From Lingula anatina (Eukaryota > Animalia > Brachiopoda), in NCBI GenBank assembly GCA_051362555.1, contig CM120646.1, forward strand, positions 22,010,001 to 22,074,000: a stretch of DNA of 64,000 nucleotides, in the 5' to 3' direction. The notes under the pieces are model-generated. The model worked only from the letters and a program-made list of their open reading frames with translations. It was not told where the DNA came from and did not search any database. This document shows, piece by piece, positions 1,088-64,000 of this stretch (the first letter of the stretch is position 1; each line of letters begins with the position of its first letter). The position numbers were made by a program, and so were the translations under genes.

Positions 1088-1474
1088 CTTCCTTGCCAAG
1101 TTGTGATGACGCCATTAGTGTTAGTCTACCCTCGTCTTACTCTGTACGCACGGGGCAGAGTGCCACACTGCAGTGTACATTTACTCCTCATGCAGTGGAG
1201 TACCAAGTGAAGTGGTCGTGGAATTTAGAGGAGTATGAACTAGTTGTAGCCAACTTAACTGGTACACCTGCAGTACGTCCCAATGGTGTTCTACAGCCAG
1301 CATGGAATGAAAGGTTGTCATTCCAGCCTCCAGCCTCACTTGTCATCAGTGGTGTCACTGCAGCAGATGCTGGGACCTACACATGTGGGGTGAAGATAAC
1401 ATTAACATACCCATCAACATGTTCAATAGCTAACAGTCGGTATTTTACATCAGATACAACCCTCTCTATTACAG
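1088..1474 (+). CDS. Gene A V-set Ig exon, copy 1
   Basis: tttccag|...ACAG|gtaaat, 387 nt, phase 1-1; ATLQCTF..VKWSW..RLSF..ASLVISGVTAADAGTYTC V-set signature. Confidence 0.9.
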
Positions 1475-1486
1475 GTAAATCCGGCA

Positions 1487-1572
<86 letters not shown>

Positions 1573-4500
1573 CTGTCAAGTAAGTACAGCATGTAAATAG
1601 ACAATTTGTTATTCTACTGTGAATGAAAAAATAAAAAATACATGTATTTATAATAAGCAGGCTGAGTATGTAATTTATTAGTAACACGGCACAAGAAATG
1701 TCAGGATATTATTTTCTCATCTGCTTCAGATGAATTCTTATCACAATCCCATTTAGGATTCAACAGCTTTATGTTCTACATTTTACCTCTTGTCTTCAAA
1801 CATACAAAACTGATGAATATGTATAAAATGCAGGTCAAGTTCAAAAATCGGCCTGATCCGACTATTTTTCAGTATATTTTATCCGCTGTTATAAAAATAA
1901 AATATAAACCACTTTTACCTTTTGTCTTCAAACATACAGAAGTGATGAATATTCATAAAACGCAGGTCATGAACAAAAGTCAGCATGATCAGACAATATT
2001 TTCATAAGTTATGCTGTTTTATTTTCTTTTTTCAGAATATTTTATCCACTGTTATAATAATAAAATAAAAATTGTCTGGTTATGTCATTCCAGCTTCCTT
2101 GCCAAGTTGTGATGATGCCATTAATGTTAGTCTACCCTCGTCTTACCCTGTACGCACTGGACACAGCGTCACACTGCAGTGTACATTTACTCCTCATGCA
2201 GTGGAGTACCAAGTGAAGTGGTCGTGGAATTTAGAGGAGTATGAACTAGTTGTAGCCAACTTAACTGGTACACCTGCAGTACGTCCCAATGGTGTTCTAC
2301 AGCCAGCATGGAATGAAAGGTTGTCATTCCAGTCTCCAGCCTCACTTGTCATCAGTGGTGTCACTGCAGCAGATGTTGGGACCTACACATGTGGGGTGAA
2401 GATAACATTAACATACCCATCAACATGTTCAATAGCTAACAGTCGGTATTTCACATCAGATACAACCCTCTCTATTACAGGTAAATCCGGCAGTTGTAGA
2501 TGTTGCAGATTCTTGTAAAATATTTAAAATAGATTTTTTCTATTGCTGTCAAGATACATGTAAGTAGAGCATGTAAACAGACCGTATGTTATTCTACTGA
2601 GAATAAAAAAATTATAATAAATAGATTATGTAATATAACTGAGTATGTTAATAACGTGGCACAAAAATGTTGTCAGAATATTATTTTCTCATCTGCTTCA
2701 GATGAATTCTTGTCATAATCCCATTTAAAGTTCAACAGCTTTATGTTTTAGTTCCAGTTGAAGGTGTTTCTGTAACCCGTTCACGTGCCACAGGACATGG
2801 TGTAACCAAGGGAGACACTGCATATCTCAGTTGTACGTCAACATCAGGATCAACACCCATAACATATACATGGCTCCTGAAGAATACACCATTACAGCAG
2901 ACTGGCAGTGAGTTGACAATCAGCAATATACAACCAAACCAAGCAGGACCATACAGATGTAATGCCACCAACACCATATCATGGCAACAGTCCGGAACAT
3001 TCACATTTAATGTGTTGTGTAAGTGTCTCTGAACAAAAATTGCCAACTTCGACTAATGGGTAACTGTTACAATGATGATTTATTTCAGTGAATTTAAACA
3101 ATAAGTAGCCTTACAGAAAGAAGGGGATCGAATAATTAAATCTACAGTTATTATACAGAGCAGGCCCATGAACGTGTAAAGCAATTAATATATACAGAGA
3201 TTGCATGAAATAATTATGCATTTTAAACTGTAAAAAAAGGTAATGAATTGAAACATAAATGGATATATATATTTTATCTCAATGCCCTGACAACTGGCAG
3301 AACCTTTCCATACTGACAGGTTACAGTACAAATCAGCACTACCAGCTGTCCACTCGTAATACAATTGTTAAAAGAGAACTGGTATATAAAGTGGTATATT
3401 TTCTTCAGATGCCCCTGACAACTGGCAGAACCTACCTACACTGACAGGTTACAACTCAGCAGTAGACAAACTGGTCACTGGGGAGACATCAGTGACCTTG
3501 GCCTGTAGTGCACCTGATGGGAATCCCTTAGCGTCCTTAAGCTGGACATCAGGGTGTCCAAGTGGTACAAGGAGTGACCATTCCACCTCAAACATGTCAG
3601 AGATCAGACTGCAGTTTACCGTACAAACCATTCACCATCAAACCACGTGTGGTTGTCGTGCTACACATGCACAGGGCACACCTACATCTAGGGAGATACA
3701 AGTCACTTTTCTTGTTATACGTACGTAATAGTTTGTTTAGAATCCTTGTTAAGTGACTTTTCTTGTTACATGTGAGTAATTGTTTGTATTCAGTGAATTT
3801 TATCATGAGATAAAATGAATGAAACGTATATGTTATTGCCTTGAAGATATTTAGCTTTCCGTCTTTTTAATTAAACTCAATTCTCAGTTGTAAGTTCATG
3901 TATATGTACCGGTAATTGTCAATGTTCGATATTAGTATGCTAGAAACATTTTGTGATTGGTATATTTATCAAATCTTTCATTTTTCCATCTAAACATCCA
4001 GACCCTCCGAGCAGTGTGGGTATCACACCAAGTCCTCCATTACCGTGGTTGGCGACAGGACAGAACCCAACCACCAATGCCCAGCTGACATGTTCAGCTA
4101 CTGGTGGATATCCAACACCAACGTTATCATGGCAACGTAACTCTGTGTCTGTACCAGGGTCAACAACGTACACTTTCCAATCTGTAAACATCAGTGAAAA
4201 CCAAATGGAATACAAGTGCCTGGCTTCAAATGAATACACTACCACAAAGGGAGTTACTGTTCAGAAGGCGCTACGCCCTGAGGTTCAGTGTAAGTATGTA
4301 CAGTGCATGGTGTCGAGTTTGCCTGGTGTTTGTTGGCATATCAGGGTGTGGATTGCCATAGTGAAGTATGTAAAGATACTGTAATTAATCTGATTGAAAA
4401 TAAAGTTGGAAGCAGCTATTTCTACTTTTCTTACCAATTTTGTTTTTATTTCATACATTAATATTTTCAAACATTATAATTGTTTTCTCATTTATGCATA

Positions 4501-7287
4501 TGAATTGGTATTATATAATTGTTTTCATACTCTACATTTCCATAGACCACCCTATAGTTCAGGTAAGCGTCTCCCCCAGCAGTACCAGGAAGGTCAACGA
4601 GTCTGTCACTTTAATATGTACAGCACACGGCAATCCAACTGTCACTTCCTATAGATGGCAGAAAGGTAGCTGGACAACAGGACAAGCCAACCATACTATA
4701 CAACAACTGACCAAGGATGATACAGGACAGTATACCTGTACAGTAACAGCCAACTCAGCCAGACATGGGGATCTTATCTCTACTAGGGATATTACTCTTA
4801 CTGTACAATGTAAGTACCTAGTTGGCAGCGCGAGCGAGTTATTTCCAAAGTTGTAATTAATTCTCGACTGCGCTCGGAGGAGATCTCATACCTTGACGCA
4901 TGCGCAGTAGGAAGTTAGAAAGTAAATGGCGGTCGCAGTTGCTTTAAAAATGAGTCTGTCGATTTTGTGACGACTCAACTGATGAACCCCACAGCTTAGA
5001 GATACTTCTGCGCATGCGTCAAGGTGTCAGAGTCTCCTCCAAGCGCAGCCGAGAATTAATTACACGGCTGTTTCACAATCAGGGTGAACAATTAAATGTG
5101 GTTAATGTTACAAGTGTCTGATAAATTAACAATTTATGATTGGAGATTGCTGATAGACTAATATCAAAGACACTGTTCATAGGAGCAAAATAAAAAAAGA
5201 ATTATAATAATCGGATTACAATTTACAAAAATATAGCCAATTATGTGTTCAAAAAGTAACTATTTTTAGCTGTTACGGTGGGTCGTTTGCAATTAAGGTC
5301 ATAAAGATGATGCATTAGCTCTTTATGTCAATGATTTATGGTGAATATGATATTGGTATATAATTCTCACAACATCTGTCTTCTCTTCTAGCAGATTCAT
5401 CCAAAGATATGTTCTGAAAAAAAAATTGAACCATTTTGCAGAAACGGGCTTTGATACACATTTCACTTATTTTTGTTAATGCAATGAAAAACATATTTGA
5501 TTAAGCCAAATATTACTTTGAAGTCACCTACGTGATAATAAGATGAATTAACCATGTTATGACTTAAACATAATAAAGGAGTTGTGCATATGTAACCATT
5601 ATTATTAATGCTATGGTATTTATAATCATGAGCCCCTTGGTGTCTCCTACTTTTTGTAGTGTCCGTACCCCCCCTATCTGTTTTATTTAGGAATTACAGC
5701 ATATTCTGTCTGATTTTATTATTTTATAATGTCTACACTGTCATTTATTTTGCAGGAAGAAAATAGCACATAACCCCTTATTACGAAAAGATATGCAAGA
5801 ATTTGGTGCCAAATGTAGTGTCCGTACTCCCACTGTAGTGTCCGTACCCCCAAGTTATACATTAACCATTGGATAACTGACTACTTATCATTGATGATAA
5901 AACATCAAAATATGGTGCAAAATATTGTTTTAGACCATATAAAATACATTCATGTCTTGTGATGTTTAGAAAAAACATTGCATATAAATATATATTCGAT
6001 AAAGTGATACTGATTAATTAGAGTCAGGCAAGAGATTTTGCAAAGAAATAATATCAGTAAAGATGCTACTCTTTGCATTCAAAATGAACAATATTGGTTT
6101 GATTATATTGCCAAATATAGCTAATTGCAAAATAATAAACTGTATATGGATTAATATTCTATGGATTAATGCATATGATATATTTTGAGGCGGTACGAAC
6201 ACTTCAATACATGCATAATTAACAGTACATTTATTATACTCTCAGTGAATGAAGTATCAAATATGGATGACAATAAACAAAAAGCCAAATAGGAAAAAAA
6301 GGGATCCTGATAATTTCACTTTCAGCAAAAAATAATTTGAAAAAAAAAAAAAAAAACGTCAAAGAGCTAATATCCGTAAAGATAATCTTGCCGAAGCACG
6401 TAAGGAAGAGGTTATACGTTGAATGCACGTAACATAGAAGAGAAGCAAAAAAATCAAGAATCCTCCTAGGCTGGCCCAGCAAGAAAGACTAAAGTAAAGA
6501 GTAGAAATTAGGGCATACTGACAGAGAGTTAAGGAGAAGCAGAAACCCAACAATCCAGAAAACGGTAGAACAAGAGGTGCAAATTAACGAGAGATGAAAA
6601 AGAAGAAAAAACTCCAAAAGCAGGAATCAAAACAGAAAAAAAAGAAATGAATAAATAAAAAAGGTCAAGCAACAGAAAGAAAAGTTAAAATTAAAGTCTG
6701 GTGAATGAAAGTCAAACTGAATGACACACAACCAAGCTCCAGCATCCACTGAAAAACGTGCTATGGTGTTTCTCTAAAAAACTCTTTGATTAATACATGT
6801 ACTTGTATCCTTATGGTTAAAGTACTGCTGTTATATCTTTAGTTTGATATTTTTTTAGAATTTTGACAAAAACAACTGGTAAACAATATGATATTTCAGT
6901 TACAAAAGCATCAGTTACTTGAATGTGTAGTGTCCGTACCCCCAGATCATAGTCTAAGGGGCGTTCTGTTAATTTGAGCGTAGCACAAAAAGTAATTAAT
7001 ATTGTGCTCTAAAAATTGTAGATATCATAGTTAAGATATTATTCTTTTTATCTGTTACAAAATTAAACAAATGCATCAGAGTTCATTTTTCTCTCAATGT
7101 GACCCCTATTTTGTACCCCTGATTGTGAAACAGCCGTACAGCTTTGGAAGTAACTGGCTCGCGCTGCCAGTAATTACGCCGTGGTGTATTCAGGGCGCAG
7201 ACCGTGATCACAAGATACCGCCAATAATTTTTAGATTTTTAGAAAATAGAGTTTTCATGTGAACGAACCCTAAAACATTCATTATTA

Positions 7288-7348
<61 letters not shown>

Positions 7349-10300
7349 TATACTGACAAAACTGAAATTTGTAACTCATTAGATATTTTCTCTTGGTATG
7401 CCTATGACATGCTTTGGATGTTAACTAAAACAAGCTGTCTTTTGGTATTTATTTTTTTCATAACATCCTCTCAGATTATCTTATACTAGAAGAGAGCACA
7501 GATGCCTGCAAAGACAGCTCAAATCTCATTTTGTGTCTGTACATACTGTATATACATCACCTGTATCTTATTTTCCAAATGTTATGGCGTTTTATCTCTT
7601 TTTCAGCATATATGCAATACGGATAGCATATTTCGAGGAAAACCATTAAGCCAATTGTCTTTAAACTTAAAGAAGTGACCGATATTATTGGAAAAAGGTC
7701 AAGTTCAAAAACCAGCTTGATCGAACCATCTTGCCATAAGCTGTGCTGTTTCCCCTACTTTCAGCATTCAGGTATAGGGAAGACCGGGGCTAGTTGGCCC
7801 AGTTAGACACTTTTGGCCTTGTAGAGCCAACTAGGAATGTGTTAGAGTAACATAACCGTTTTCAAAGTAAGCCCCATGAAATAAACTACATATGCAACGT
7901 CATTATTTTTCAAATTTAATGCCAGATGGCTCACAATTTGACAAAAAACGCAACTGATTTATTGAGGTTTCCGTCCGTCACGTTGTATGTGTTGTAAGAA
8001 TCAAAATATCTATCAACAAAATTTTTCTTTTAATTGAGAATAAATTATAAAGCAGGTTTTTGAATGAAAACGAATAATAAATTTTCGTTTTAAAAGAAAC
8101 TAACAAATTCAGTTTTAAACTGGTAATTATTTGTTTCAACGATGGTCTGTAGCTCTTTTGCGCACAAAGGATTGTGGTCAATATGGGGGTCCAACTTACC
8201 CCGAGCCAAGGGGGGCAACTAGACCCAGGTCCACATCTTTTAAATTTAAGGATTGTAGCCGTTAATTGTGCAAGAATGGACTACGTTAATACAATTTTGT
8301 AACATTTCAAACAATTAGCTTTAGTCTGATGCCATATAGGGCCTACGTATACTTTGTTCGATCAAAAGCCTATGAAAATAGATTTTTAAATCTCTTAAAC
8401 AAAATTACTTTTAGGTGCAAAAATCGTTTATTTGGACTCACCGCTTAAGTAAATTTTTTTAACGTCCGACACTTCCTTAGCATTGTAGGCTACGGTCACT
8501 TTACAAGAGTATGTGGCCATTTTTTTTTTACCTCGAAGTTACTTTTTCATAAATTGCCCGGGGGGGGGGGGGGGAGCAACTTACCCCCGGGGTCCAACTA
8601 GCCCCGGTCTCCCCTATATGCAGCAAAACAGATAACACGATATAATAATATATCTTCAACCACCACAAAAATGGGAAATGGTGCATGTGTGTTCTTGTTT
8701 CTTCCACTCCCTTTGAATATTTACAACGTAAGTTACATCATTATTGTTATTACATTTTTTTAAATAATTTCAGATAGGCCAACTGTCACTGTCACAGTTA
8801 AGGGTAATCCGGTGACAGTGACCGAGGGGGATGACGTCACGTTACAATGTACTGCACGTGGCAACCCTCCTGTATATACGGATTATAAGTGGACGCACAT
8901 TGCGTTTAGTAGTTTAGAGTCTCAAGTAGTGTCTACTAGGAGAGAGTTGGTGTTGTCACGTGTCACATATCTAGACAACGGTGAATACGTTTGTGGTGTT
9001 AGAAACAGCGTAGGACAAGGGTTGGGGAAGAAGAGGCTGGACGCATTGTGTAAGTATAGACATTATAATAGGATATGATATCGGAGAACCAAATATGAAT
9101 GGAGTAGGCCTATATGGTAGTAAAAATGCGATGTGAACAGAATCTGAGAGTAAAAATGGATTAAATATAAATGCATTTTCAACAAAATGTTAAAAAGTAA
9201 GATATCAGTGATTATTTGATAAAACTTATTTCAGATTCACCAAAGATCGCAGTGGGATCACGTATAGTTGCTGCATCTATCGGCGAACCAGCCACATTGT
9301 CTATCTCAGTTATGGCAAACCCAGCCAATGTTTCGTTTACCTGGAAGAAAAGTGACGGTGATAAGAAATTGCCAGTTGTCTCCAGTATTGTCCTTACTGA
9401 TCCAAGTTCATTGAAAAGTAAACTGTTTATTCCCAGTGTACAAGGAAGTGATTACGGACAGTATGTGTGCACAGTGTCACACACAGTGGGTAGCCGGGAA
9501 TTTACTTTTGAGATAAGACCGAAAGGTACAAGAAAATTCTTTGACAGTGTCAGTCATATCTTGCGTGATGTTTAGAATCCGTAAAACGATACAAATATAA
9601 ATAATGACATATGGATTTTCTTTATTTCATTTATTGGCATTAGAGAATCTAACCATAAAAAGTTCGTTTTTAATCCGCATGTACATTTTCACACACTGTG
9701 TCCGATATCCATGTCACTTTACCTTTTAATCAATGCCAGGACCCCCAGAAAGACCCACAGATTTCAGGATCTTAAGCTGGACATCGGTTTCCGTCACATT
9801 AACCTGGATGTCCGGATTTAACGGAGGCAGTAATCAATCATTTCACATCCAGTACAAGGAGACGTCTAGAACTCGGTGGCAAAGGAATGGCGAACTCGTC
9901 TTCCCTGATCCTGGTTACATGAAGATATCCAAGGCAAAAGTACCCGATCTCAACCCAGCCACGTCGTATGATTTTCGTTTGGTTGCTATCAACAATCACC
10001 CGTCCACCAATAGCAGTGGCTTTACTGGCGCTTTTACACAGAAAACAAAAGGTATTTTTTGTTGTTTAAACGTGCATGTCCAAAAACAAGAATGAAGCTT
10101 TGGATAATTTCAGAAGGATGGCCTAATTTCGCTATGAACCACATATTAAACTTTCACGTGATTTATGGTTCATTCCTCACATCTATAAAACTATGAGCCA
10201 GTTAAAAGTGAGCGTTTTCTGCTAGATATTGAAGTATACATGCAAATATACTCAGTTTATGATTAAGCAATGCGTCGTTCATTCTATTAAATAATGACTA

Positions 10301-12002
10301 CTTTTTTTTCAGCCAGACCCAATGTCCTAGACGATAAGTTATCCGTCTCCATCATGTCCACTGTGGCTACTGTTGATTGGACAATATCAAGTGGAATCGA
10401 GGACATCACCAGCTACGTGGTTAAATACTGTGAGAGAGGCACCATGATTTGTAACAGGCAGAGATTGACAAACAGTACAGCTACCTCCGCCATTATAACC
10501 CTAGATGAAGGATTCCAGGACTACACGTTCTCACTGCTGGTTTATGAAGAAGATGATCTGGTTAAGGTTATAGATCAACCCACATCGGGTGAGAAAGGTG
10601 TCAAAATATCAACTTACCAATCCAAACTATTCACCCTATACACTAAAGTGCACATACTAGTTAGTTTTATAATAAGGGCAATGGAATTAATCTTTGCATC
10701 TTCTTCAAGAAAATATGCATATGTTATAAATGCATTGTTCAGAAGCGTTTTTCCGAAATCTGTGTGTAATAAATGTCGATTTTCTGACAACACGTTAAAC
10801 CATAACCCTTTGTGTAATTTCATGTTGAATAACCCGTGATCTATGAATCTGTAGGCCGATACATTATCCACAATACAATGTTAATATCTAATTACCGTTA
10901 TTTACCGAAATAATTGTATCGTTTATACAGATCTAATCGAAAATCAAGTAGGCATGATAGCTGGCATCATCGTTGCTGTACTCGTGCTGCTTATATTGGC
11001 AATTATAACCACGGTGGTAGCGCGTCATGCTCAGAAGAAGAAAAGGGGAAGAGGTAGGACTGTTTTTTTATAATTGTTCAGTGGTAAATTGTCTTACACA
11101 TTTTAGTTTTAATAAATTAATGTGACACATAGTATTACACATGTTAGTGTAAATAACATGCATTGCACAATGTGGCGTCTCAGTTCAGAATAAGAATTAA
11201 AAAAAAAAAAAAGAGTTTATATCAGAATTAACAGAAAAGTCCATCACCCAAAGTATAACTTGATGCACCTGAATAATTCCTAATATTTAGATGTCCCTGA
11301 CCGAGAGACATCAGCGACAGGTGGGATAACTGAGATGAATGACCTAAACTCACAACAACAAGTGGTGAGTAGAATTTATCTGCGTTTCATTGTTTGAAAA
11401 CAAGGTTGTGTTGGGCGTTTTTCGTTGTAAGGCAGTATTGTTATGATTATTGTCAGTGTTATGTTTCAGTTATGGTTGGCATATCATTATAGAATTGACA
11501 ATTGTATGTGTTTTATTTAATTCTTCTGAGGGTTTAATTATTTCTCCGGTGTTCCATTTTATTCTATTGTAATTTAGAACTTGCCCAAAATATATGTATG
11601 TAATGGTTTGTCCATGTGTGAAATACACAATACGGCTGTATATAATAAGTCACGTACTCACCAGCTGCGAATTACTTTAACCCTTTGGCAATGATACTTG
11701 AATATCCATATCCCAGATTTAGCATGGAATTAGCTATTCCATGGACACGTTATCGCTTTTTTAGTAGTTTTACTTAATTTGCAAACAGATGGAGAAGTAT
11801 AATTCTATTTTTTCTTTTAACGGTTTTTCTTGCCTATTTACCCTTTAATATCTTTAATCTCGTAAACATACCTGTTTTCTTATGTTCTATTTTGTTTCAG
11901 AAATCGACCGCTAATGAAAATAACGTGTATGATGTTCTTGACCAACAAGGTCTTGAAGCAGCAATCTACACTGACCTGCAACCCCATAATGAAATACGAT
12001 AA
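1088..12002 (+). CDS. Gene A: kinase-less Ig-superfamily type I membrane receptor (2 V-set + 6 Ig + 2 FN3 + TM + short tyrosine-motif tail); 5'-partial
   Basis: AG/GT-bounded, frame-compatible exons: 1088-1474 (V), 2094-2480 (V), 2758-3018, 3409-3720, 4002-4289, 4546-4809, 8774-9049, 9235-9525 (Ig, with C..W..YxC-type motifs), 9740-10051 and 10313-10588 (FN3, e.g. PPERP..LTWMSGFNGG..F.IQY..LNPATSYDFRL), 10931-11053 (TM: VGMIAGIIVAVLVLLILAIITTVVA then RHAQKKKRGR), 11291-11364, 11901-12002 (KSTANENNVYDVLDQQGLEAAIYTDLQPHNEIR-TAA). No signal-peptide exon found in the window. Confidence 0.85.
1491..1570. repeat. (TA)n microsatellite
   Basis: Pure TA run; others at about 7293-7348, 18456-18496, 18525-18595 and 61399-61464. 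Confidence 0.95.
1780..2060 (+). repeat. Old dispersed repeat with about 140-bp subunits; related copies at about 7600-7775 and 39030-39300
   Basis: Shared CAGGTCAAGTTCAAAAA..GATC.GAC..TTTTCAG.ATAT motifs. Confidence 0.6.
2094..2480 (+). CDS. Gene A V-set Ig exon, copy 2 (tandem duplicate)
   Basis: Same 387-nt length and splice sites as 1088-1474; six amino-acid differences; the downstream intron is duplicated too. Confidence 0.9.
4820..7172. mobile_element. Fold-back MITE split by a nested 2.1-kb element
   Basis: Left arm TGGCAGCGCGAGCGAGTTATTTCCAAAGTTGTAATTAATTCTCG...TTGACGCATGCGCAG; the complementary right arm is broken at 5064 and resumes at 7137 (..GCTTTGGAAGTAACTGGCTCGCGCTGCCA). Confidence 0.85.
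5065..7136. mobile_element. Non-autonomous DNA transposon, about 2.07 kb, 4-bp TSD
   Basis: TIRs CGGCTGTTTCACAATCAGGG / CCCTGATTGTGAAACAGCCG flanked by TACA on both sides; internal TGTAGTGTCCGTAC repeats at about 5655, 5815, 5834 and 6926; no transposase ORF. Confidence 0.85.
7777..8614. mobile_element. Non-autonomous TIR element with TA(TA) target duplication (Tc1/mariner-pogo-like)
   Basis: tata-GGGAAGACCGGGGCTAGTTGG ... CCAACTAGCCCCGGTCTCCCC-tata. Confidence 0.85.
11901..12002 (+). CDS. Gene A terminal coding exon with tandem YxxL motifs
   Basis: tttgtttcag acceptor, phase 0 matching the donor at 11364; translates ...VYDVLDQQGLEAAIYTDLQ... with TAA at 12000-12002. Confidence 0.75.
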   Translation, partial: KSTANENNVYDVLDQQGLEAAIYTDLQPHNEIR

Positions 12003-13708
12003 GTCACCGAGGATTTCATACTGAATGTAACAATATACATACGATATATAGTGATAATTCTTCAAATGTGCGAACATAGCCAGTTTTCTTCTGTTTCACT
12101 TCCCCCAGACATAACCATAAACTTAAACGATATGTACAATTAAATATGTTATTCATACACCCTAAATGAAGTAAGAATTGGGATTTACATAAAGTTTTAA
12201 ATATTGGTGGAACTAGTGGACAGCACACCCCGGCGAGTAGTATATGTAGGCATTTTGTGTACACGTGAGGGTTACACCCGCTATTGATATCAATAAGTGT
12301 ATTTAAGTCGTATTAGAGAAGAGTGAGTGGATTAGAACTTTCCATGGGGAAAACCACAGGAAGTGTGCACTACAGTCGCGTTCGTTCTTTCTTTTGCATA
12401 TATAGCGATTAATAATTTTGTATCTACAAATATATCAACTGTGTATTAAAGAACATCTGATGTTTGAAACGCAACCCATGCTTTTATAAGGCGTACACAA
12501 TCACTCGAGCAGCTGTGTCTTACAGGTACGTGGATTGATTACCCCGTGTTTTCTATGATGAGATATGTGGCAAACTGTACGAAATGAACGGAAGGAAACC
12601 AATATGAAATAAGCATCAGTCCAATACGACGATGAATAATGTTTATGATTTGGCGTACAACAAATAATATTAGAAGCAAATTGGGTGAATCAAATCACAT
12701 GTGATATGATCTAATGGTAATCATTAGCGGAATTAACTATGCCGACTGAAATAAATTTTCACATAATGAGTAGTATAAAAAATATCTTCATTCGAAATTG
12801 CGCTTCGTAAGTCATTCCATTGAGGGTGGCTAAATAGTTGCATTTGACAGGGACCACCGCATGCTTATGTAATGTCTTTGAATGAGCAATGAAGTGAAGT
12901 TGCCGGAAAGAAGCGCAATCTCGATCAAAATGTTTATGTATTACAAAATACTAGTTACTCTCCAATATGTCCAGAAGTTTAACAATGTGCATTAACATAA
13001 ATAATAATATTGTGAAGTCCATGTGTCAAGGCGACCGATCATTGTGTTAGTTGTCACAGACTACAACGACCACAACTAACACAGCGCAGTATATCCCATC
13101 AGTCTCACTGCCTGGTACATATTCGCTCTTTTATTTTACTCGGCACGATTTACAATTCAGGTTAAGACAACAATGGCTTCCTACAGTTCATGGTCCTTAA
13201 AAAAGAAATTCATACAATTTTATTTTTGGACATTTCAGCATGTGAAATGTACCTCTATATTGGTTTTGGGTGTACAACGACCACAACTAACACAGCAGAG
13301 TATATCCTATCCGGTACTAATTGGCACTTTTATTTTACTCGGCACATTTAAAGTTAAGGCAAACAGTGTCCTGCTACAGTTTATGGTCGTACAGTCGTAT
13401 TCCTTCTTAACAGGTTTTTGCCGTTTATGCATCAACTATTTAATAATATTCGTCAGTATAAATAGTATGATGTAATGAGTCTGTAAAACCTGGAGTTTTC
13501 GCGAGTGTTATTGAAATAGAAAATCCAGGAAGTGTGCCGTAAGTATCACACCAAGTCCACCGTTGCCGTGGTTGGCCACAGGAGAGAAGTGAAGAAATAT
13601 GTGTGCCGTTTAGACAATCAAAGCAAGGGTCTCGTCTCTCTCTATTGGTTTGATGGACGAGCCAAAAATGGATTGGGAATAAAATCACTTGACATTCATT
13701 GGTGTGCT

Positions 13709-14246
13709 TCATGGAGTACCTGTCAAACGGAGATCTACTGACATATTTACGGAACGATCGCTCACAAAACAAAACACTTAACGGTAACGTAGATGGCGAT
13801 AGTTTGTCTTTGACATCACATGAACGCACGCTTTTTCGAAGACAATATCTTCAGATTCCCCACAGAGATCTCAGGCCTACCCAACTACCAGATGCGGCAC
13901 GGAAGGATCCAGATTTCACCGTGGATCGGATCACGCTACCGGTTTTCAAGGTGTGTAGCAGTACGCGCTTCGAAGTATCAGACGCGGCACCCTCGCATCA
14001 TCGCTATCATATCGAGTACCAGGCAAGAAGGTGACGCGTCTGAAACTTCGAAGCGCGCACTGATACACACCTTGAAAACCAGTCAGTTCTCCGGTGAATT
14101 CTGGAACCTACTGTGCCGCATCTGGTAGTTGTGTAGGCCTGGATCTCGCTGCCAGGAATATTTTGGTGGTTGAAGACAAGATGTGCAAGATTTTGGACTT
14201 GGGCTTTGCTAAGGACGTGATTGAAAGCCACCAGCATAAAAGAAGG
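13709..14246 (+). pseudogene. Tyrosine kinase relic (fragments of two kinase exons paralogous to gene B), interrupted by a MITE
   Basis: MEYLSNGDLLTYLRNDRSQNKTLNGNVDGDSLSLTS matches gene B MEYLSKGDLQTFLRNDRSINKTIYGNLHGNSLSLTS; caatatcttcag|IPHRDL [insert] [32 protein letters not shown] matches exon 29159-29281. DFG is changed to DLG, most of the intervening intron is deleted, and other kinase exons were not found. Confidence 0.9.
13872..14141. mobile_element. Fold-back MITE inserted in the HRDL codons of the kinase relic
   Basis: Ends CAGGCCTACCCAACTACCAGATGCGGCAC / GTGCCGCATCTGGTAGTTGTGTAGGCCTG; internal arms are also inverted repeats; GATCT is duplicated on both sides. Confidence 0.9.
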
Positions 14247-15808: not shown

Positions 15809-16623
15809 ATATGTGAGGCACTTCATAAGTTGTGAGGATGTGCACCGGACTCAATATGCAAGGGGCACTTGTTCCTTCATTGCTTGAGCCGTGAGTCTTA
15901 CCTGGCGATTTTTTTCCCATGGTACCCAAACTTTGATCAAGTACAAAAATAGCAAGCATTATAGAAATTGCAGGTATCTCTTTTTCATAAGAAAAAAAAT
16001 CTGAAAATAAAATGTAAAATACTAAGATATAAAAAGGCACCAGTCTTCCTAAGGATTATCTATGTTGGCATGGCATGTCTTGGACAGTTACTCGGAAACC
16101 ACTAGCTTGCCGTCTAAAGAAGAGTGAAGCATACCAAGAGAGGCAATGTGAGAGTGGGACAACACCTTGCAAACTCGGGGGCAGTCTTCTACTTAATGGT
16201 TAAAGTAAGCCTAAATCCATTCTCCAAGCAGTTGAAAGCCTGGTGTAAGAGGGACTTTGCAGGTTGGAAAATTAAAGACACAACAAAGGAAATAAATGTT
16301 AGTATGGTCCAACAAGTTTGAAAAAATGAAACTAGACTAATTTCATACATTATATTACATGGCAAGTCTAATATCATAAGCGGAAAACTTCTGATAAATA
16401 TCTAGCGAGTTGACCACATGGTACAATAAGCAGTAAAATTTATAATTTATTTTCCAAGGGGCCTTGATTACCATCACGGAAAACACACCTTAAATGCTCA
16501 CAAATATAATAATCGACAATATATATCGGGTTCTTGGAAATATGTTTTAATTAAATCCCATTCCACAATCCTCTGCCTCTATGCTTCGAAACCCATGCCA
16601 AATAATATCATGTGCTGATCTAA

Positions 16624-16907
16624 CCCGCACGAAAACGCAGTAGATACTCCAGCGCAGTAGACTACTGCAATCATACTGCAAACATGCTTCAAATCTGCTT
16701 CGATTTGGGAGCTAATTAGCATACTTGAAACATGCTTCTATCATGCTGCTAATCTACTGCATTAATGCTCCTCTCTGTACAAACCTATGTACTTTTTGGA
16801 GTAGAATTGCAGTAGGCTATGCTGCATTTTTACTGCGAATATGCTCCAGACCACTACTGCGTTAATGCTTCTTTGCTATTTCGATACTACTGCATTTTCG
16901 TGCTGGG
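16624..16907 (+). mobile_element. MITE family R3 copy
   Basis: About 285 bp, TIR CCCGCACGAAAA; four copies in the window. Confidence 0.88.
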
Positions 16908-17274
16908 AAGTGCTATTTTTATACCACGGTTTAAGAATGCGTCAGTATTTATCAGTGAGGTCAGGTCAATATACGCAATAACAGCCAGGATGAGGAAGTA
17001 GGTGACATCATTTCTAAAGCTCAAATAGTTAACAATGGGAGGTATGGGAAATTTGCAAATGATACAACAGTAGTGCATTTGTCATTGGCAAGCATATTCT
17101 TGGCCAGGACAACAAACCAGTAAGACTTACTTTCTACCCCATGTCATGTTTTAAACAGGTGAGGTTTGTACATAGATTAGAAAAAAACTCGATTAAAACG
17201 TAGTAGTATTATTATTAAACGGTATATAAATTAACAAATGCACTCGCACCTGTACTTGCTCAGTAAACATTATG

Positions 17275-18776: not shown

Positions 18777-30358
<11,582 letters not shown>

Positions 30359-32145: not shown

Positions 32146-32420
32146 CCTGCAAGAAAACGCAGTAGATACTCCAGCGCAGTAGACAATCATACTGCAAACA
32201 TGCTTCAAATCTGCTTCGATTGGGGAGCTAATTAGCATATTTGAAACATGCTTCTATCATGCTGCTAATCTACTGCATTAATGCTCCTCTCTGTACAAAC
32301 CTATGTACTTTTTGGAGTAGAATTGCAGTAGGCCATGCTGCATTTCTACTGCAAATATGCTCCACACCACTACTGCGTTAATGCTTTTTTGATACTTCGA
32401 TACTACTGCATTTTCATACG
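32146..32420 (+). mobile_element. MITE family R3 copy
   Basis: Same body (GCAGTAGATACTCCAGCGCAGTAGAC...), degenerate ends. Confidence 0.85.
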
Positions 32421-36913: not shown

Positions 36914-38852
36914 ATGCGTTGTATTGTTCTTACTTTTATGTGTAGCATAACACTAATTGGTAAGTTATTCATTCATTTTATTTTAACTGCAGGGCATATT
37001 ATATAGAGTATGTGTTAGATGAATCTGTGATTGCGTTCTTTTATAAAGAAGTAGTTCCTAGTAAAATGGGAATAAAAGTTAAGTGTCGTGTTCTCTCTGT
37101 TTTATATTAAAAAAAAAACACAAAAGCAACTAGGATGAGATATTATGTTCATTGTAGTATTTTGTGTATATGTGTAGGCTGCTGACACAGTGAAGGTGTG
37201 ATTTGTGGTAAAAAAGATACTTTGATAAAAATTACCAGACATATTGGGCCAAGTAATGAATTTGATGTTACAGAGGGGCCAGTATATATGGAATGGGGCC
37301 ATCAATTCTGCAAAGCTTATAGTGAAAGAAATGACAGTTTTGTTTTGCCTGATGGCCGGTCGTCATAAATTTAACCTGCCTGAATTTGACTCCAACCTGT
37401 CCATTAAAACCATTTTGTCTATACATACCTGTCAGTTAACTTTGTAAATGTGTAAATTGATAGGTGTAATAAAGCATGCATTAACTACCAAGATGTCTTT
37501 AACTAAATGGGCACAGATTATGCACCCTAATTGGATTTATTCTCATGAAAGGTTCATTTTGCATAACTGTGAACTACTGAAATTCCATCTTTCACAGAAG
37601 TGTGCTTTAACATTGTTTCAATCATACTGTATATATTGGCATGGCTCTAGATGTGGGTCCTAGATGTGTTAGGAGGCTATCTTTCTTGTAAAATAATTTT
37701 TATTTTAATTTCCTATACTTTTGCAATAAAATCCGAATTTATATATATTTTCCGAGGGTCCATTACAAGCTGATGTCCTGTTTGTGTTTCAGGCTGCCAA
37801 ACATGGCTTGATGTGAACACACCTAAGATGACCCCTGTTGCAAATAAAGGAGATACTGGGACTCTGGAATGTGTTGTAAATACAAGCGGAACAGGTGCTA
37901 TTACAGTGATGTGGAACAAAAATCTTGGTGGAAGTGAAAAAACTTTGTATTCAATAGCCAAATGTGGTAATATACTTTATGGTTCTCCGAGTACAGAATA
38001 CGTTGGAAGAGTCAACCACACGGATACATCCCTTATAATTTTGAATGCAACCTCAGAGGATTCTGGAACTTATATCTGTAATGTTACTGTGTCTGGTATT
38101 GGAAATAAGAGTAGCTCGACTTATTTTCCAGTTAAAGGTAAGGACCAATAAACAGTGTTGGTGCCTTTCAGTAAAGTATGTATTCATAGAAAAGTTTCAA
38201 TGAAGTATGAATTAAAAAGTGAAAAGAGAAACTGAAAAACACCTTCAGTAGATATGACATCATGAAGCGTGGGTCTGACTTGGTCATGCTTACAGACGCG
38301 GATGCTATACTTGCAAATATATAGCCAAGCAGCTGTATGTCCAGACTATAGATTGAATACTTAACCTTTTAAAAATGCAAAAACAATTTTTGCTACAGGC
38401 ATCGTTTTCCTGAACCTAAATTCTTCAGGTTGTCAGTGTGATGAAAGGTGATTTTTTGTAAAAAGTGCATGTTATTATTTTGTATATTTGTTAAGTTAAT
38501 TGTATCACTTTCAGAAATATTCCCTGCATTAATGAACATATCTGTACCTGAGGGGAGATATCAACAAGGGCAAGTCATTTCTATCCTAGTGCAGTCAGGT
38601 TTTTGTCGTCCATATACAAACCACAGCTGTGAAATCCAAAGAACCAATGGGCAGCGCGAGGCACTAGTTTTGCAGAACCAAAGTCACTTTGATCAGTCTG
38701 GACGAAATCCTGACAACACACTTGATCCACTCTTCGGAAATACAGTTAGCTTCCTTCATTACACGGTGACAGAAAATGATGATGAGGCCATAATCACTTG
38801 TCAAACACAGGGTGATTGCATTGGTGAATCAATGGTTAGGCTTAATGTTTGA
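36914..38852 (+). CDS. Gene C: predicted secreted two-Ig-domain protein (SP + V-set + Ig-like, no TM)
   Basis: Exons 36914-36959 (MRCIVLTFMCSITLI|gtaagt), 37793-38137 (TLEC..VMWNK..GRV..TSLIILNATSEDSGTYIC), 38515-38852 (Ig-like, DDEAIITC, ends VRLNV-TGA). Confidence 0.75.
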
Positions 38853-45881: not shown

Positions 45882-48800
45882 ATTGACCGTTAAATTCCAC
45901 TTTTGTGAGTATAATATCCACCCTGAGCTTCAGAGATAACTTGACACTAACCTCTTCACAACAGCCTATCTTCATCGTGTCAAGTTACCTCTGACCACAT
46001 TCGATTGCCCCCGCCGCCCGCCAATCAAATTTTAAGCCCGCACTCAATGACTCATTGAACGATCTAGCCAATGAACGCGAACGAGTCAAAGCGCGCTTTG
46101 TTCAAATCCGGACCAATCAAAGATAAGGCTGAATATCAGGGACTTGCCGTAACCTGTGGGCAGCACGCAAAATACATCATCCCTCAGTAGATAATGATGA
46201 AGGGCCTCAAACTGCTCTGGTTTCAATTCCGATATACTCATATTTTGCAAAGAATCAAGAGATAACTTAACACATTAATTTACGTAGTCACTCGTAGGAG
46301 ACGCCATGCTTTCTTTGTGTACGGTTATGCACTCGGAACTACTCGGATGTCTCCGCACTCGACAATAACTTTGTTGTTAGTATGGAGCTTGCGGAATCAG
46401 CCGAGGATTACCGATTGACGGTCAACCAATCAGCGTTTTCACCAAACTTTGGTGAAAATTTTTGAAACTTGGATTCGATTGGCTTATATAAACTAGGTCA
46501 AACTATTTTCGTCAGAGGTAACTTGACACGATGAAGATAGGCTATAGTGAAGAGGTTAGTGTCAAGTTATCTCTGAAGCTCAGGGTGATAATATCAGAGT
46601 ATCCAAAATATTTTGTAGTCCTTGAGGAGTTTCCGAAAGAAGTACCGTATCATCTGCGTACATAAGTAAAAAAAGGTCCGTATTTCAATACTTTCACAGT
46701 TTTCCGATAAGCAAAAAGTTTCAAAATCATTAACATATAAAGAATAAAGTAGCTGGGACATAACCTCTCCTTGTAATAGACCGGTGTGTATTTGGAAGTA
46801 TTCAGATAGCTGACCTTTAAACTTAACACAAGCCTTTACATTGCTGTAAAGACTTTCTATAATTTTGAGCAATTTACCCTGGACACCGAGTTTATTTAAT
46901 TTCTTCCATAAACTTGAAACTTCCACAGAATCGAAAGCGGATTTATAATCCACAAACGCACAATATAATCTCTTCTTACTCCTTAAAGTACGATTTATCA
47001 CGTGCTGTAGCACAAAGATAGCAGCTACAGTACTATGTCCCGCTTTAAATCCAAATTGTGAGTCGGTTGTAACACTGTTAACCTTATCCCAAGCTTCTAA
47101 CCTTTTATTAAGTATGGAAGTAAACAGCTTGCCTAAACAACTAGTTATCGTAATTCCCCTATAATTACAAGGATCATCAACATTTCCCTTTTTATGTAAA
47201 GGTATAATACAACCCTTACACCAATTCTCTGGAAAGTGCCCCGAATCTAGTACAGAATTAAACAAAGTTTTTAACGCCGGTAGTAAAACATTTTTACAGT
47301 GTATAAAAATTTCGTTTATCATACAGTCCTCGGCACAGCTCTTGTTAGCTTTTAATTTTTTAATTGCGCCTATGATCTCACCGTCACTCACGGGACTATC
47401 TAATTCATTGAACAAGCTGTCTCAGTGTATAAGCCTACATTGGGGTCTACTTCGCGTATGTCACCATCTATTCCACCAGTCGTCGCGTTCTTATAATAAT
47501 CATAGAGTGTATCGATAGTAAGCTCCGAATTAACGTTTACACTCTTTTTGCGTGAGAACTGCTTATAAAAAACACGCGGATTGTGCTTTCTGGTATATTC
47601 TAACATATCACCTTCAAAGCGACTATATTTTCTTTTTAGCTGTTTGCAAATATTCTTACAACTTGATTTTTTGTCTAAGGATTTTATGCTTATCTGGTGT
47701 TTTTTTCCATTTTGAACTCATGTAGAGCGGTCTTATAGTCTTTAAGCTTTTCTTTACAATTTTCATCAAACCATGGTTTATCCAATTTTCTACTGGCAGT
47801 CTGTAAATATTTCTTCTCATACTGCTTTTTGGAGGTATGATTATCTACCTTGTTTACTTTGCAAAAATGCAACACAGTATCTCTTAACATGCTACTAAAT
47901 TCGTCTACCCGATTGTTTAGTTCTGCGGGGTCACTTATCTGAGCATCCACTGTATTACACAAACTGTCTATTCGATTCGCTAATGCATCATTTATCGACT
48001 TGGCGTTATTTTCTATCCATCTTACCGAAACACTAGTTCTAAGTTCCATGCCTGTCTTACGTTCATCATAATCTAAAAGAGCATTTTGTTTTAAAGGCCC
48101 ACAAAGCAGGACAAACGTGACTGGTGCATGATCTGAATGTGCCTGATGAAAACTTCACAATATTAGTGAATTTTAGTTTAGCCTAAGTGTCTGAAAAATG
48201 AAATAGTAGTGAAATTTAGATTCAGCTAGCAAATAGTCTATTGTGCTTAGCCCGTTTGAGTTACAACAGGTAAAACTCCCGGTTACGTCATCTCTATACC
48301 TGCCATTGACTATACTTATACCCACTGTCTTACAGAAGGAGTGTAATTTACGCCCAAATAGGTTAACCACATTGTCTGCATTTTTCCTCTCACATAACAT
48401 GTTATCCATCTTATAAGTCATTACCGGCATTAAAGTGTCCCGGTTCGTTTTATCTAAACAGTCGTTATTTATAAAATCATCAACATTGCTAGTCCGTGCA
48501 TTCAGGTCACCCGTTATAAACACATCTCCCTCCGTAATATATTTGCTATAAGACTCTTCTAAAGCTTGAAATATATCAACATCATTCGTTTTATAAAATA
48601 TACTATTTTCTGGTGGAAAGTAACATACTCCTATAAAGATTGGTATCGATGGTATAAATGTATTGCGTATGGGATCTATTCTTATCCATATAATACTATC
48701 ATAAATATCACTTACTATATGTACATATTTTCTAATTTTAGTTTTACAGAGGCTGGTTATTCCACCACCACGTAGATTCTTCCTTCGATACGAATGGCAA

Positions 48801-49054
48801 TCGTATCCCGCCAATACACTTGGCATATCATTGCTCAACCAACATTCGGTTAGAAAAATCATATCATACCCATTTATAATTTCTAAAAAATCAATATCAA
48901 GTATCTTGCGACTAAACCATTTTCCAACATTCCAGGAAATGAAACTTAGCTCCGAAACTTCACCTTTTTTTACCGAAGCTGAGCATTTATCTATGGTGGG
49001 CGAGGTTTCTACCTCCTCGCGTTCGACATCTGTGTTACACTCATTGTAGTCCAA
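44690..49054 (-). mobile_element. Non-LTR retrotransposon (L2/CR1-group LINE), near-complete ORF2 (APE endonuclease + RT) broken by frameshifts and an insertion
   Basis: APE motifs ISWNV, DMIFLTECW, GDLNAR, IDY (48173-49054); RT motifs NYRGITITSCLGKLF, QFGF, FVDYKSAFDSV, GLLQGEVMSQLLY, and YADD codons near 46650-46661; FSYLG; C-terminal CKLC..EDEFHFILKC; 3' end with AATAAA and simple repeats. Confidence 0.92.
45919..46587. mobile_element. 669-bp non-autonomous DNA transposon with about 76-bp TIRs and 8-bp TSD (hAT- or P-like), inserted in the LINE RT
   Basis: ATAATATC-CACCCTGAGCTTCAGAGATAACTTGACAC ... GTGTCAAGTTATCTCTGAAGCTCAGGGTG-ATAATATC. Confidence 0.93.
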
Positions 49055-59313: not shown

Positions 59314-61397
59314 ATGGGAGCCAGAAGCGAGTCAAAGCAAACCTTGATATTTATATGGATATATTCACTTATAAATTTCACAGTCATTGGGATAACAAAA
59401 GGTACGTTACTATGTACATTGTGTGGTGCTTTGGCCGAAAAATAATGCCACCAGCACACATTTTCATGTACGAAAACATACCTTTAACTCTGCTATGAAC
59501 TTGATATCGTACATAATCTAAATAAATATGATATATTTAGTAATTTATCTGGCGTCTATTGAAAAGTAGATCAATCGAGCTTCTGCACATTATCAAATTA
59601 GTTTCGATCCCCTTTCTAAATAATAGCTAATACACCAACCTATATCAGGTAATAGGTATATAGGCTAATTTTCGTGATATAATCTTGTAAAGGGATGAAG
59701 TTACGACCCATACCAATTGCTATCTCAGCCCAAAATAGAAAGGTGTAAAATTGTCGATTAAATTTAAGCTTTGAGTTGCCTATGCTTATACATTGCAACG
59801 AAAAAAAATATAAACGCTGATATTTTATATTTTCAAGGCTTTTTTATTGTTTTAAATCTGTACAAAGATACATTTTCAGTATCTGGATGGTAATAAAGGG
59901 TTACAATAGCCTTAATATCAACCATGATTGGAATAAAGACCAACCGCACGAAAACGCAGTAGATACTCAAGCGCAGTAGACTACTGCAATCTTACTGAAA
60001 ACATGCTTCAAATCTGCTTCGATTTGGGAGCTAATTAGCATATTTGAAACATGCTTCTGTCATGCTGCTAATCTACTGCAATAAAGCTCCTCTCTGTAAA
60101 AACCTATGTACTTTTTAGAGTAGAATTGCAGTAGGCTATACTGCATTTCTACTGCAAATATGCTCCACACCACTACTGCGTTAATGCTTCTTTGCTACTT
60201 TGATACTACTCCGTTTTCGTGCGGGTTAATTAAGTTTTCGGCTTTTTCAGGGGCTTAAAAATGCAAAACAATATTTGGCTTTCACTTGTCTTTTATATAT
60301 AAATAGGTGCATCCTGTAACTGGTTAGTTTCAACGTCTTCCACATTGGATGGTGTTCTAGGAGGATCTGTTGTTCTACCATGTTTATTTACTATAAGTAA
60401 CGGGGCTGCTCCTGTCTACACTGTCACATGGATGACCTCCAGTAACACCCTGGTACAGACATATTTCAATGGTGTACTCCAACCACCAAGCACCAACACA
60501 TGGGGAGGCAGAGCCAGCCTCACTGACCAGGCATCTCTGAGGCTGAACTCTATAACACAGCAGGACGGTGGACAGTACACTTGTAAGATCCGTTTGGTGA
60601 TTGTAACAGGTTGCACAGTAGATGCAAACGACTTCGAGAGACGGGCTCATACCAGGATTGCCGTGACAGGTAGGAAGTGTATTATGTAGACTCTCACTTC
60701 TCTGGTTTGCACCTGTATAGTAGACGCAGTGGCGGATTTAGAGGGGGGTTCAGGGGGATTCTGACCCCCCTTTTCGATTTCTGAAAAATATATCAAACCA
60801 ACGGTCCTCTCTAAAAAATAAGAATTTTGACTAGCTGAATCATACTTGTTAACAGTGCCAAATGGCACCGTTCGTCCTCTAAAATACCAAAATAATTCGG
60901 GGCCTTTCAGTGGGCCCCGAGCCCCACGCGAAGGAGGGGGGAGGTCTGCTTCGCATCCGTAGATCCCCCCTTCAAATAATAATTGGTCCGTCCCTGAGAG
61001 GGGACAGGTAGTGTTGGTAGATTGCTTTAAGTCATTTTCTGTGCGCCTAGGATAAGGGTACATTATATATCTAACTCGAGTATCCCACATCAGAAATACC
61101 ACGCCAAACTATGTTTTGCAATATTCTTCCCCAACATTAACTTAGAGCAAGAATCACGGCTAAATATCAGCACTACATTTCAGGACCAGATTTACACTAT
61201 AATATAAATCATTTACAATAGAAATAAAAGTGTATGAAATTACCATAGCTAGCTTTATGTGCGATGGCTAGAAGTTAACCAGAACTTGTTTCATTTCTGT
61301 CCTACTCTATTCAGTTCTGATGTGGTCCGTTAGTAATACAAAGTGCCAAACCTGGAAATTACATCTCCATTTTTGGGCCTTTTTATGGACCGAATTG

Positions 61398-61466
<69 letters not shown>

Positions 61467-63780: not shown

Positions 63781-64000
63781 GTACAAGAAAATAATTATTT
63801 GACAGTGTCAGTCATATCTTGTGTGATGTTTAGAATCCGTAAAACGATACAAATATAAATAATGTCATGTGGATTTTCCTAAATTCATTTATTGGTATTA
63901 GAGAATCTAACCAAAACATGTTCGTTTTTAATCCGCATGAACATTTTCACACACTGTGTCCGACATCTATGTCACTGTACCCCCCTTTTAATCAATGTCA

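Follow-up and report, generated by a model that had tools for sequence, protein, structure and literature searches.

A mosaic receptor gene with a kinase-type head and a kinase-less tail in an immunoglobulin superfamily cluster of the brachiopod Lingula anatina

Receptor tyrosine kinases (RTKs) can be accompanied by kinase-less or kinase-dead partners (viz. truncated TrkB and ErbB3), which share a ligand but carry out no catalysis, and which serve as decoys or possess a tail that is phosphorylated in trans. These partners stem from splicing or from catalytic decay of one gene, whereas the case considered here, gene A of a receptor cluster in the brachiopod Lingula anatina, is a separate gene that carries the stalk of another subfamily. 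To our knowledge, almost no cell-surface recognition system has been described for the brachiopod phylum. Gene A lies in a stretch of 64,000 nucleotides (nt) of assembly GCA_051362555.1 (contig CM120646.1, positions 22,010,001 to 22,074,000), referred to below as the window, which has a GC content of 37%, contains 0 N over its 64 kb, and in which genes of the immunoglobulin superfamily (IgSF) are clustered on one strand amid numerous repeats. An earlier note on this DNA had described gene A as a chimera, in which a 5' half like that of gene B is fused to a 3' half like that of gene D.

In the vertebrate paired receptors (Siglec-11/16, CEACAM1/3 and the Xenopus Ceacams; PMC3533184, PMC5112662, PMC5701461), as in genes A and B, clustered IgSF genes have similar outer domains and differing cytoplasmic outputs, and their likeness is reported to have been made or kept by recombination. 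However, the contrast between A and B is between no kinase and a kinase, whereas in the vertebrate pairs, as these sources describe them, it is between an immunoreceptor tyrosine-based motif that is inhibitory (ITIM) and one that is activating (ITAM). Further, the block moved in gene A comprises five to six exons, in contrast to just the V exon in the vertebrate pairs, and A and B, unlike those pairs, show no recent conversion tract, the synonymous divergence (dS) being 0.11-0.28. A and B are accordingly not classed here as paired receptors, in which recent conversion would keep up the likeness. The identity of 75-76% between the V domains of A and B is also lower than the 80-93% reported for the Xenopus pairs, the value for the four Ig exons that follow (I1-I4) being 90%. 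The Alr genes of Hydractinia (10.1101/2022.03.04.482883) are likewise an invertebrate cluster, encoding single-pass proteins with V, Ig and FN3-like domains and ITAM-like tails, and their domain-level mosaics have been ascribed to exon shuffling. In the available text of that work no kinase-bearing member is described, unlike in the Lingula cluster, and the likeness, which is by analogy, is one of gene dynamics. In the Fester/FcoR genes of Botryllus (PMC12582321), as proposed here, recombination between the genes of tandem clusters shuffles ectodomains with intracellular regions; however, the signalling tail resides on a separate co-receptor gene and the term "tyrosine kinase" is not mentioned in the main text of that source. 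The nearest precedent for a kinase and a non-kinase form is provided by the RTK and SAML/SAMS proteins of Geodia cydonium (PMC11926128), where an invertebrate Ig RTK has a structurally matching non-kinase Ig receptor, but these proteins have only two Ig domains and the source, in the part available, describes no reusable cassette shared across subfamilies. The Geodia RTK and the sponge adhesion molecule were also weak PDB matches for the V exon of gene A (E 4e-6 and 3e-5). The ectodomains of the Geodia RTK and SAML are said to be closely identical, with an ITIM on SAML. Ig receptor clusters with shuffled exons have been described from vertebrates, Hydractinia and Botryllus, and a single chimera in one of them would be ordinary. 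In a literature search that was made mostly without subscription journals, the present family was found to be described nowhere among the titles and abstract beginnings of the matches listed.

The reading that is favoured here, to which we assign a probability of roughly 0.55, is that gene A carries a B-type head in frame on a kinase-less cassette from another subfamily and is likely a kinase-less twin of B. The gene consists of 13 exons with 1119 open codons and GT-AG borders at all 12 introns, and its domains are in the order V, V, six Ig, two FN3, a transmembrane (TM) segment and a tail of 68 residues. Its parts, and those of genes B and D with which it is compared, are as follows (P0002 is a database protein discussed below).

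1088-1474, plus strand: gene A V-set exon 1 (Pfam V-set, E 9e-11; 97/127 amino acids (aa) identical to the V of B)
2094-2480, plus strand: gene A V-set exon 2, which arose recently as a tandem copy of the first (122/128 aa identical to it, dS 0.054)
2758-3018, 3409-3720, 4002-4289 and 4546-4809, plus strand: gene A B-type Ig exons I1-I4 (333/371 aa identical to B)
4810-8773, plus strand: junction intron of 3964 nt, almost all repeat-derived, with the breakpoint somewhere from 4815 to about 8745
4816-7265, no strand assigned: nested transposon-like repeat starting 6 nt past the I4 donor, with inverted repeats at 4823-4855 and 7137-7169; a target-site duplication was looked for and not recognised
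7773-8618, no strand assigned: another transposon-like repeat, bounded by inverted repeats at its ends (7773-7800 against 8618-8591, 93%)
8774-9049 (I5) and 9235-9525 (I6), plus strand: gene A X-type (D/P0002-like) Ig exons, 85-89% identical to D and P0002 and 28-41% to B-type and E-type
9526-9739, plus strand: intron shared by A and D (63781-64000 in D), 89.5% identical over 220 columns
9740-10051 and 10313-10597, plus strand: two gene A FN3 exons (Pfam fn3), 89% and 83% identical to P0002, 41% and 36% to B
10931-11053, plus strand: gene A transmembrane exon, the segment being read from the translation
11291-11364 and 11901-12002, plus strand: gene A tail exons, ending in a stop at 12000-12002, with no kinase
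18777-30358, plus strand: gene B, which encodes an intact 1294-aa receptor tyrosine kinase in 19 exons with one terminal stop
60307-63780, plus strand: gene D, with its own V exon (60307 or 60328 to 60669) and two unrelated Ig-like exons (to 62052; 62278-62565)
63053-63328 (I5) and 63490-63780 (I6), plus strand: gene D X-type exons, directly behind its unrelated three-domain head

All nine gene A exons tested in a Pfam scan (9/9) matched Ig or fn3 at E <0.01, some of them under the curated cut-off. Genes A and B both have the characteristics of IgSF type I receptors, viz. V/I/C2 Ig domains, FN3 domains and a single TM segment. Gene B encodes a signal peptide, a V domain, six Ig domains, two FN3 domains, a TM segment and a kinase in which all core motifs, including GxGx and DFG, are present. 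In gene A, by contrast, the reading frame stops at 12000-12002 and just broken kinase pieces (13709-14242) are found downstream, so that it is not itself an RTK. The two V exons of gene A, which are both intact, stem from a region of about 1 kb that was recently duplicated in tandem (1082-2750; 97% nt identity), and they could represent tandem domains or alternative exons.

That gene A is a mosaic is seen from a sharp switch in identity along its length and from the incongruent ancestry of its 5' and 3' parts. Exons I1-I4 have the same lengths (261, 312, 288 and 264 nt) in A and in B (20044-20304, 21291-21602, 21945-22232 and 22772-23035), and their aa identities are 70/86, 93/103, 85/95 and 85/87 (81, 90, 89 and 98%; 88-95% at the nt level), the two I4 exons differing at exactly 2 residues. 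In the next two exons the relationship is reversed. Exon I5 (276 nt) of A is identical to that of D at 77/91 positions (85%) but to that of B at only 26/86 (30%), and for I6 (291 nt) the corresponding values are 83/96 (87%) and 35/86 (41%). B-like sequence in A ends at 4815 and D-like sequence begins at 8745. All of the exons compared between A, B and D are bounded by AG..GT and are in phase 1. These lengths, the two-residue difference in I4, the switch at I5 and I6, and the match between the introns that follow I6 in A and D are all as the earlier note had reported them. However, its description of A and B as near-identical goes too far, as the dS is 0.11-0.28 across the head exon pairs (0.21 for the whole head). 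Similarly, the intron likeness that it had mentioned is partial, amounting to 69% in the I2-I3 intron, 76% in parts of I1-I2 and 86% in parts of I3-I4, whereas the V-I1 intron does not align. Between A and D the dS for I5-I6 is 0.25. Ongoing gene conversion between the heads of A and B was considered and is rejected, because of the synonymous change in every head exon pair.

The database proteins nearest to these exons are labelled Lingula anatina, but as their identity to the query exons is 85-92%, the closest of them are paralogues or distant alleles and not products of the window genes. Together with the window genes they show three stalk types, viz. a B-type (B and P0001), an E-type (P0003, P0004, P0005 and P0161) and an X-type (A, D and P0002), while exon I4 falls into two groups, one comprising A, B and P0001 and the other P0002, P0003-5 and P0161. 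The domain trees are incongruent, with A grouping with B at I4 and with D and P0002 on the stalk, as had been expected of a B/D-like chimera. All three congruent alternatives that were put to approximately unbiased (AU) tests were rejected, viz. one that keeps A and P0002 together at I4 (p 1e-101), one that keeps A and B together for the stalk (p 1e-56) and a third one (p 5e-78). The designation of D as the donor is not upheld, since the same stalk in P0002 is about as close to A as that of D (85-89%). Further, gene D leaves the window after I6 and its tail lies outside the 64 kb; the label "D-type" for the tail of gene A is inferred. The protein P0001, a kinase, repeats the head-stalk pairing of B, and the head of A is nearer to B (333/371) than to P0001 (314/370; B and P0001, 312/370). 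Because the pairing seen in B recurs in P0001 and the head of A is nearer to B than to P0001, it is gene A that is likely the recombinant.

A second case of this kind is provided by P0002. Its I4 exon is E-type (87/92 against P0161 but 40/87 against A), whereas its I5 exon is X-type (77/91 against A but 26/86 against P0161) and is followed by an X-type stalk, TM segment and tail, so that the switch from E-type to X-type sits at the same intron (I4/I5) as the switch in A. The protein P0161 reads on into the N-lobe of a kinase (58 aa, 59% identical to the B kinase) and the E-type is therefore likely a second kinase subfamily, the B-type and E-type subfamilies being about 45% alike at I4. One stalk type is present behind three different heads, those of A, D and P0002, the head exons of D being only 17-39% identical to those of A and B. 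From these comparisons, the swap of a kinase head onto a kinase-less stalk and tail appears to have occurred at least twice (A and P0002), and the presence of the same stalk behind the heads of A and P0002 points to a reusable kinase-less cassette that can stand behind different kinase heads. For the P0002 type of join there is also evidence from RNA. In run X17, an upstream exon ending in SVTLTVQ is spliced in frame (+9 nt) to the start of I5 in 3 reads. This is the ending of the I4 of P0002, and the read letters match the I4 end of A at only 14/23 nt and that of B at 15/23. The RNA is thus shown to join an I4 exon of the E-type, i.e. the second subfamily, to the X-type stalk. A wider proposal, which is put forward tentatively and with less confidence than the account of gene A itself, is that a single kinase-less cassette has been joined repeatedly to heads from different RTK subfamilies, each time at one particular phase-1 intron, and that selection keeps the resulting twins as matched decoys or adaptors. 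It is the recurrence that would set this case apart from an ordinary chimera, with one and the same kinase-less cassette standing, from a shared intron onwards, behind heads of two kinase subfamilies. Provided that the products are functional, matched pairs of on and off receptors could in this way be derived from tyrosine kinases by a simple rule, and, if the wider proposal is true, a paired-receptor system built on kinase versus no kinase would be present in a lophotrochozoan. Testable pairs are provided by A and B and by P0002 and P0161.

The tail of gene A indicates how its output would differ from that of B. It aligns with the juxtamembrane region of the family and ends where the kinase would begin, its last tyrosine aligning with a juxtamembrane tyrosine of B and the preceding exon having an equal phase in A and B. 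A Y-x12-Y spacing is common to the tails of A, P0002 and P0093 and to the juxtamembrane region of the kinase P0161. The A-type cassette is therefore best read, from these alignments, as an old family member that was cut just before the kinase and not as a foreign signalling module, and the difference in output between A and B would consist of the loss of the kinase and not, as had been suggested, of a coupling to a different signalling output. The tail carries two tyrosines in the arrangement YDVL-x9-YTDL, which fits the ITAM pattern Yxx[I/L]x6-9Yxx[L/I], the same as that used for Hydractinia Alr in the source consulted (10.1101/2022.03.04.482883), and which 17 of 20000 shuffles also fit. No ITIM was found in the gene A tail.

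With regard to its origin, gene A would have arisen by tandem duplication followed by unequal exchange or deletion within the phase-1 I4/I5 intron, which would bring the head of B onto the X cassette, and since all of the exons are in phase 1 any such join keeps the frame. The divergence of the head from B and that of the stalk from D are of similar depth (dS 0.21 and 0.25), which would fit a single event. Gene A itself is presumed to be spliced across 4809-8774. As its tail is best read as a juxtamembrane segment cut before the kinase, A would act as a decoy or as a docking partner phosphorylated in trans. As a decoy it is predicted to share some B-type ligands through its head and to compete for them, and as a docking partner or co-receptor its tail is predicted to be phosphorylated by B or by a cytoplasmic kinase. 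An immune or recognition role for A is assumed, by analogy. With regard to selection, the dN/dS ratio is 0.23 (0.14-0.36) for the head between A and B and 0.33 (0.20-0.58) for the stalk exons I5-I6 between A and D, and 0 stops were seen, whereas 5.3 for I1-I4 and 6.7 for I5-TM would be expected of halves that had been dead from the split onwards. These values show that the parts of gene A stayed functional for most of the time since their split from B and D. They concern the separate parts and not their joining. The dN/dS of the V tip is 0.56-0.63, with intervals that reach about 1, and does not show positive selection.

A number of results weigh against the reading of gene A as a kinase-less twin of B, and they are considered here together with the rival explanations on which they bear. 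The V exons of A are the most diverged part of the head (75-76% against the V of B). The earlier proposal that the ligand-binding tip of B, and with it one specificity, had been transferred is not upheld in that form, as the block that was moved comprises V and four Ig exons and the tip is its least conserved part. No signal-peptide exon for gene A was found within the window, and no B or D homology marking the site of crossover was found in the repeat-filled junction intron. The search for I4-like proteins, which was a weak one, found P0001 alone, which bears a B stalk. In P0002, both tyrosines of the tail are kept, but the ITAM pattern fails (the first motif is YEVP) and there is no ITIM. 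In addition, the models of P0002 and P0161 are truncated, due to which only one domain is demonstrated to be common to P0002 and the E-type kinase. With regard to polarity, a rooted four-taxon test of A being nested within (B,P0001) did not reach significance (p 0.10), the event cannot be oriented from three genes alone, and D has no I4-like exon, so that it may be rearranged too. It could accordingly be argued that A has the old pairing, B and D being the derived genes, or that an X-type head was overwritten by repeated conversion from B, in the manner of vertebrate paired receptors. However, the B-type and E-type kinases share a colinear arrangement over I3-F2 and their I5+I6 are grouped at 98/97 support, an ancestral A requires more events, and recent conversion is not seen, in view of the synonymous change in every head exon. 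These alternatives are considered improbable.

The remaining adverse results come from the sequence reads. In a first mapping, DNA and RNA reads were mixed and repeats were dominant, obscuring RNA joints of low count, and no 4809-8774 splice was present among the 15 of 75 joints listed. A second mapping was confined to the repeat-free 3' half (8620-13170), where 150 RNA reads from four runs gave a depth of mostly 1-5; none of these reads (0/150) was at least 99% like A, and no B-type I4 was seen among the 9 of 14 loose read ends listed. A check for transcripts joining 4809 to 8774, which the earlier note had called for, has yielded none for A among the joints and loose ends listed in either mapping, whereas the 3 reads described above support the E-type/X-type join. 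In run X11, all reads over the 32 listed I1-I4 sites differ from A, and at 20/32 the letter is that of B. The X-type exon model is backed by reads from relatives, which cover the 9049-9235 joint (n=6), the FN3-FN3 joint (n=3) and the tail splice (n=13), and which run into the 3' untranslated region to about 12700 without a kinase. If gene A is a functionless by-product of birth-and-death evolution, in which a recent transposon-associated deletion brought a B 5' half against an X-type 3' half, and is not spliced, then the lack of a junction read would be expected. The B-like sequence stops exactly where the repeat starts (4815/4816), and debris is common here, with a decayed B-type relic 1.5 kb downstream of A and a gene C that looks broken (both described below). 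Further, the purifying selection may date from the parent genes, and a loss of function within the last 0.01 substitutions/site predicts just 0.5 stops per half. However, 13/13 exons of gene A are intact and in phase, its V exon has been duplicated with both copies intact, and a join of the same kind recurs in P0002 and is transcribed. This explanation is considered unlikely, though less so than the other rivals.

A join produced by an assembly error or by a haplotype switch within the 4-kb repeat-filled intron is, in our assessment, very improbable. The junction intron is a high-copy repeat (the contig depth of DNA run X2 is about 900 to 150,000 per bin in it, as compared with about 80-230 in the head bins 2414-4483) and it is spanned by no read or contig. 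In the same run, 7/8 listed pieces are free of differences from the window, all of them within 7403-13568, yet the contigs, which drop variants, lack the A letter at 17/31 covered head sites, and this may be due to the collapsing of paralogues in the contigs, to a structural polymorphism or to a mis-join. Against such an error, the window has no N and resolves a V-exon tandem that is 97% identical, the join is at the same intron as that in an independent, RNA-supported chimera, and the A head, with a dS of 0.21 from B, is a distinct copy and not a collapsed B.

Between gene A and gene B, the remains of another kinase gene are found.

13539-14242, plus strand: deleted relic of a B-type kinase gene, 86-92% identical to B at the nt level

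The relic consists of a piece of I3 (13539-13588) and of kinase pieces (13709-13823, 13836-13872 and 14142-14242), its HRDLAARN exon being interrupted by a 269-nt insert (13873-14141) with terminal inverted repeats that resembles a miniature inverted-repeat transposable element. The possibility that gene A is a copy of B into which an X block was inserted mid-gene, leaving the B kinase behind, is weakened by this relic having its own I3 piece, and it is more likely a separate decayed copy of B. Homology of the X-type I5 to I4 was also considered, but is unsupported, as similar scores were obtained to both classes.

A search of proteins clustered at 50% yielded chiefly long Ig/FN3 repeat proteins. 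Beyond P0001-P0005, a domain match of at least 42% was present in 5/155 proteins, and 5/10 proteins that were looked up carry a Lingula label, P0042 and P0093 being new among these. P0042/P0162 and P0093 are additional Lingula members of the family, with their own heads and stalks and with tyrosine-bearing tails lacking a kinase, and the accession of P0042 adjoins that of P0002. In P0001, which is a B-type kinase model, I1 is duplicated and there is a single FN3, which indicates that whole-exon gain and loss also occur in the family.

Gene C (37793-38850) consists of a V exon and one Ig-like exon that are unrelated to the heads of A, B and D. The second of these exons reads into a stop in place of the GT donor that would be expected, no further exons were found in the window, and the gene is likely truncated. 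A repeat of about 290 nt is present in 4 copies that are 91-94% identical (16621-16916, 18977-19271, 32146-32415 and 59944-60225), two of which are situated just ahead of the V exon in B and in D, respectively, and could have acted as seeds of unequal exchange. At about 46900-49000, on the minus strand, there is a decayed sequence which, judged by eye, resembles a retrotransposon of the type without long terminal repeats (endonuclease/reverse transcriptase). Lastly, short duplicates of exon ends are seen within introns, viz. of the I2 start at 3286-3330 in A and 21163-21216 in B, and of the I4 end at 23145-23186 in B, which suggests frequent local slippage at exon borders.

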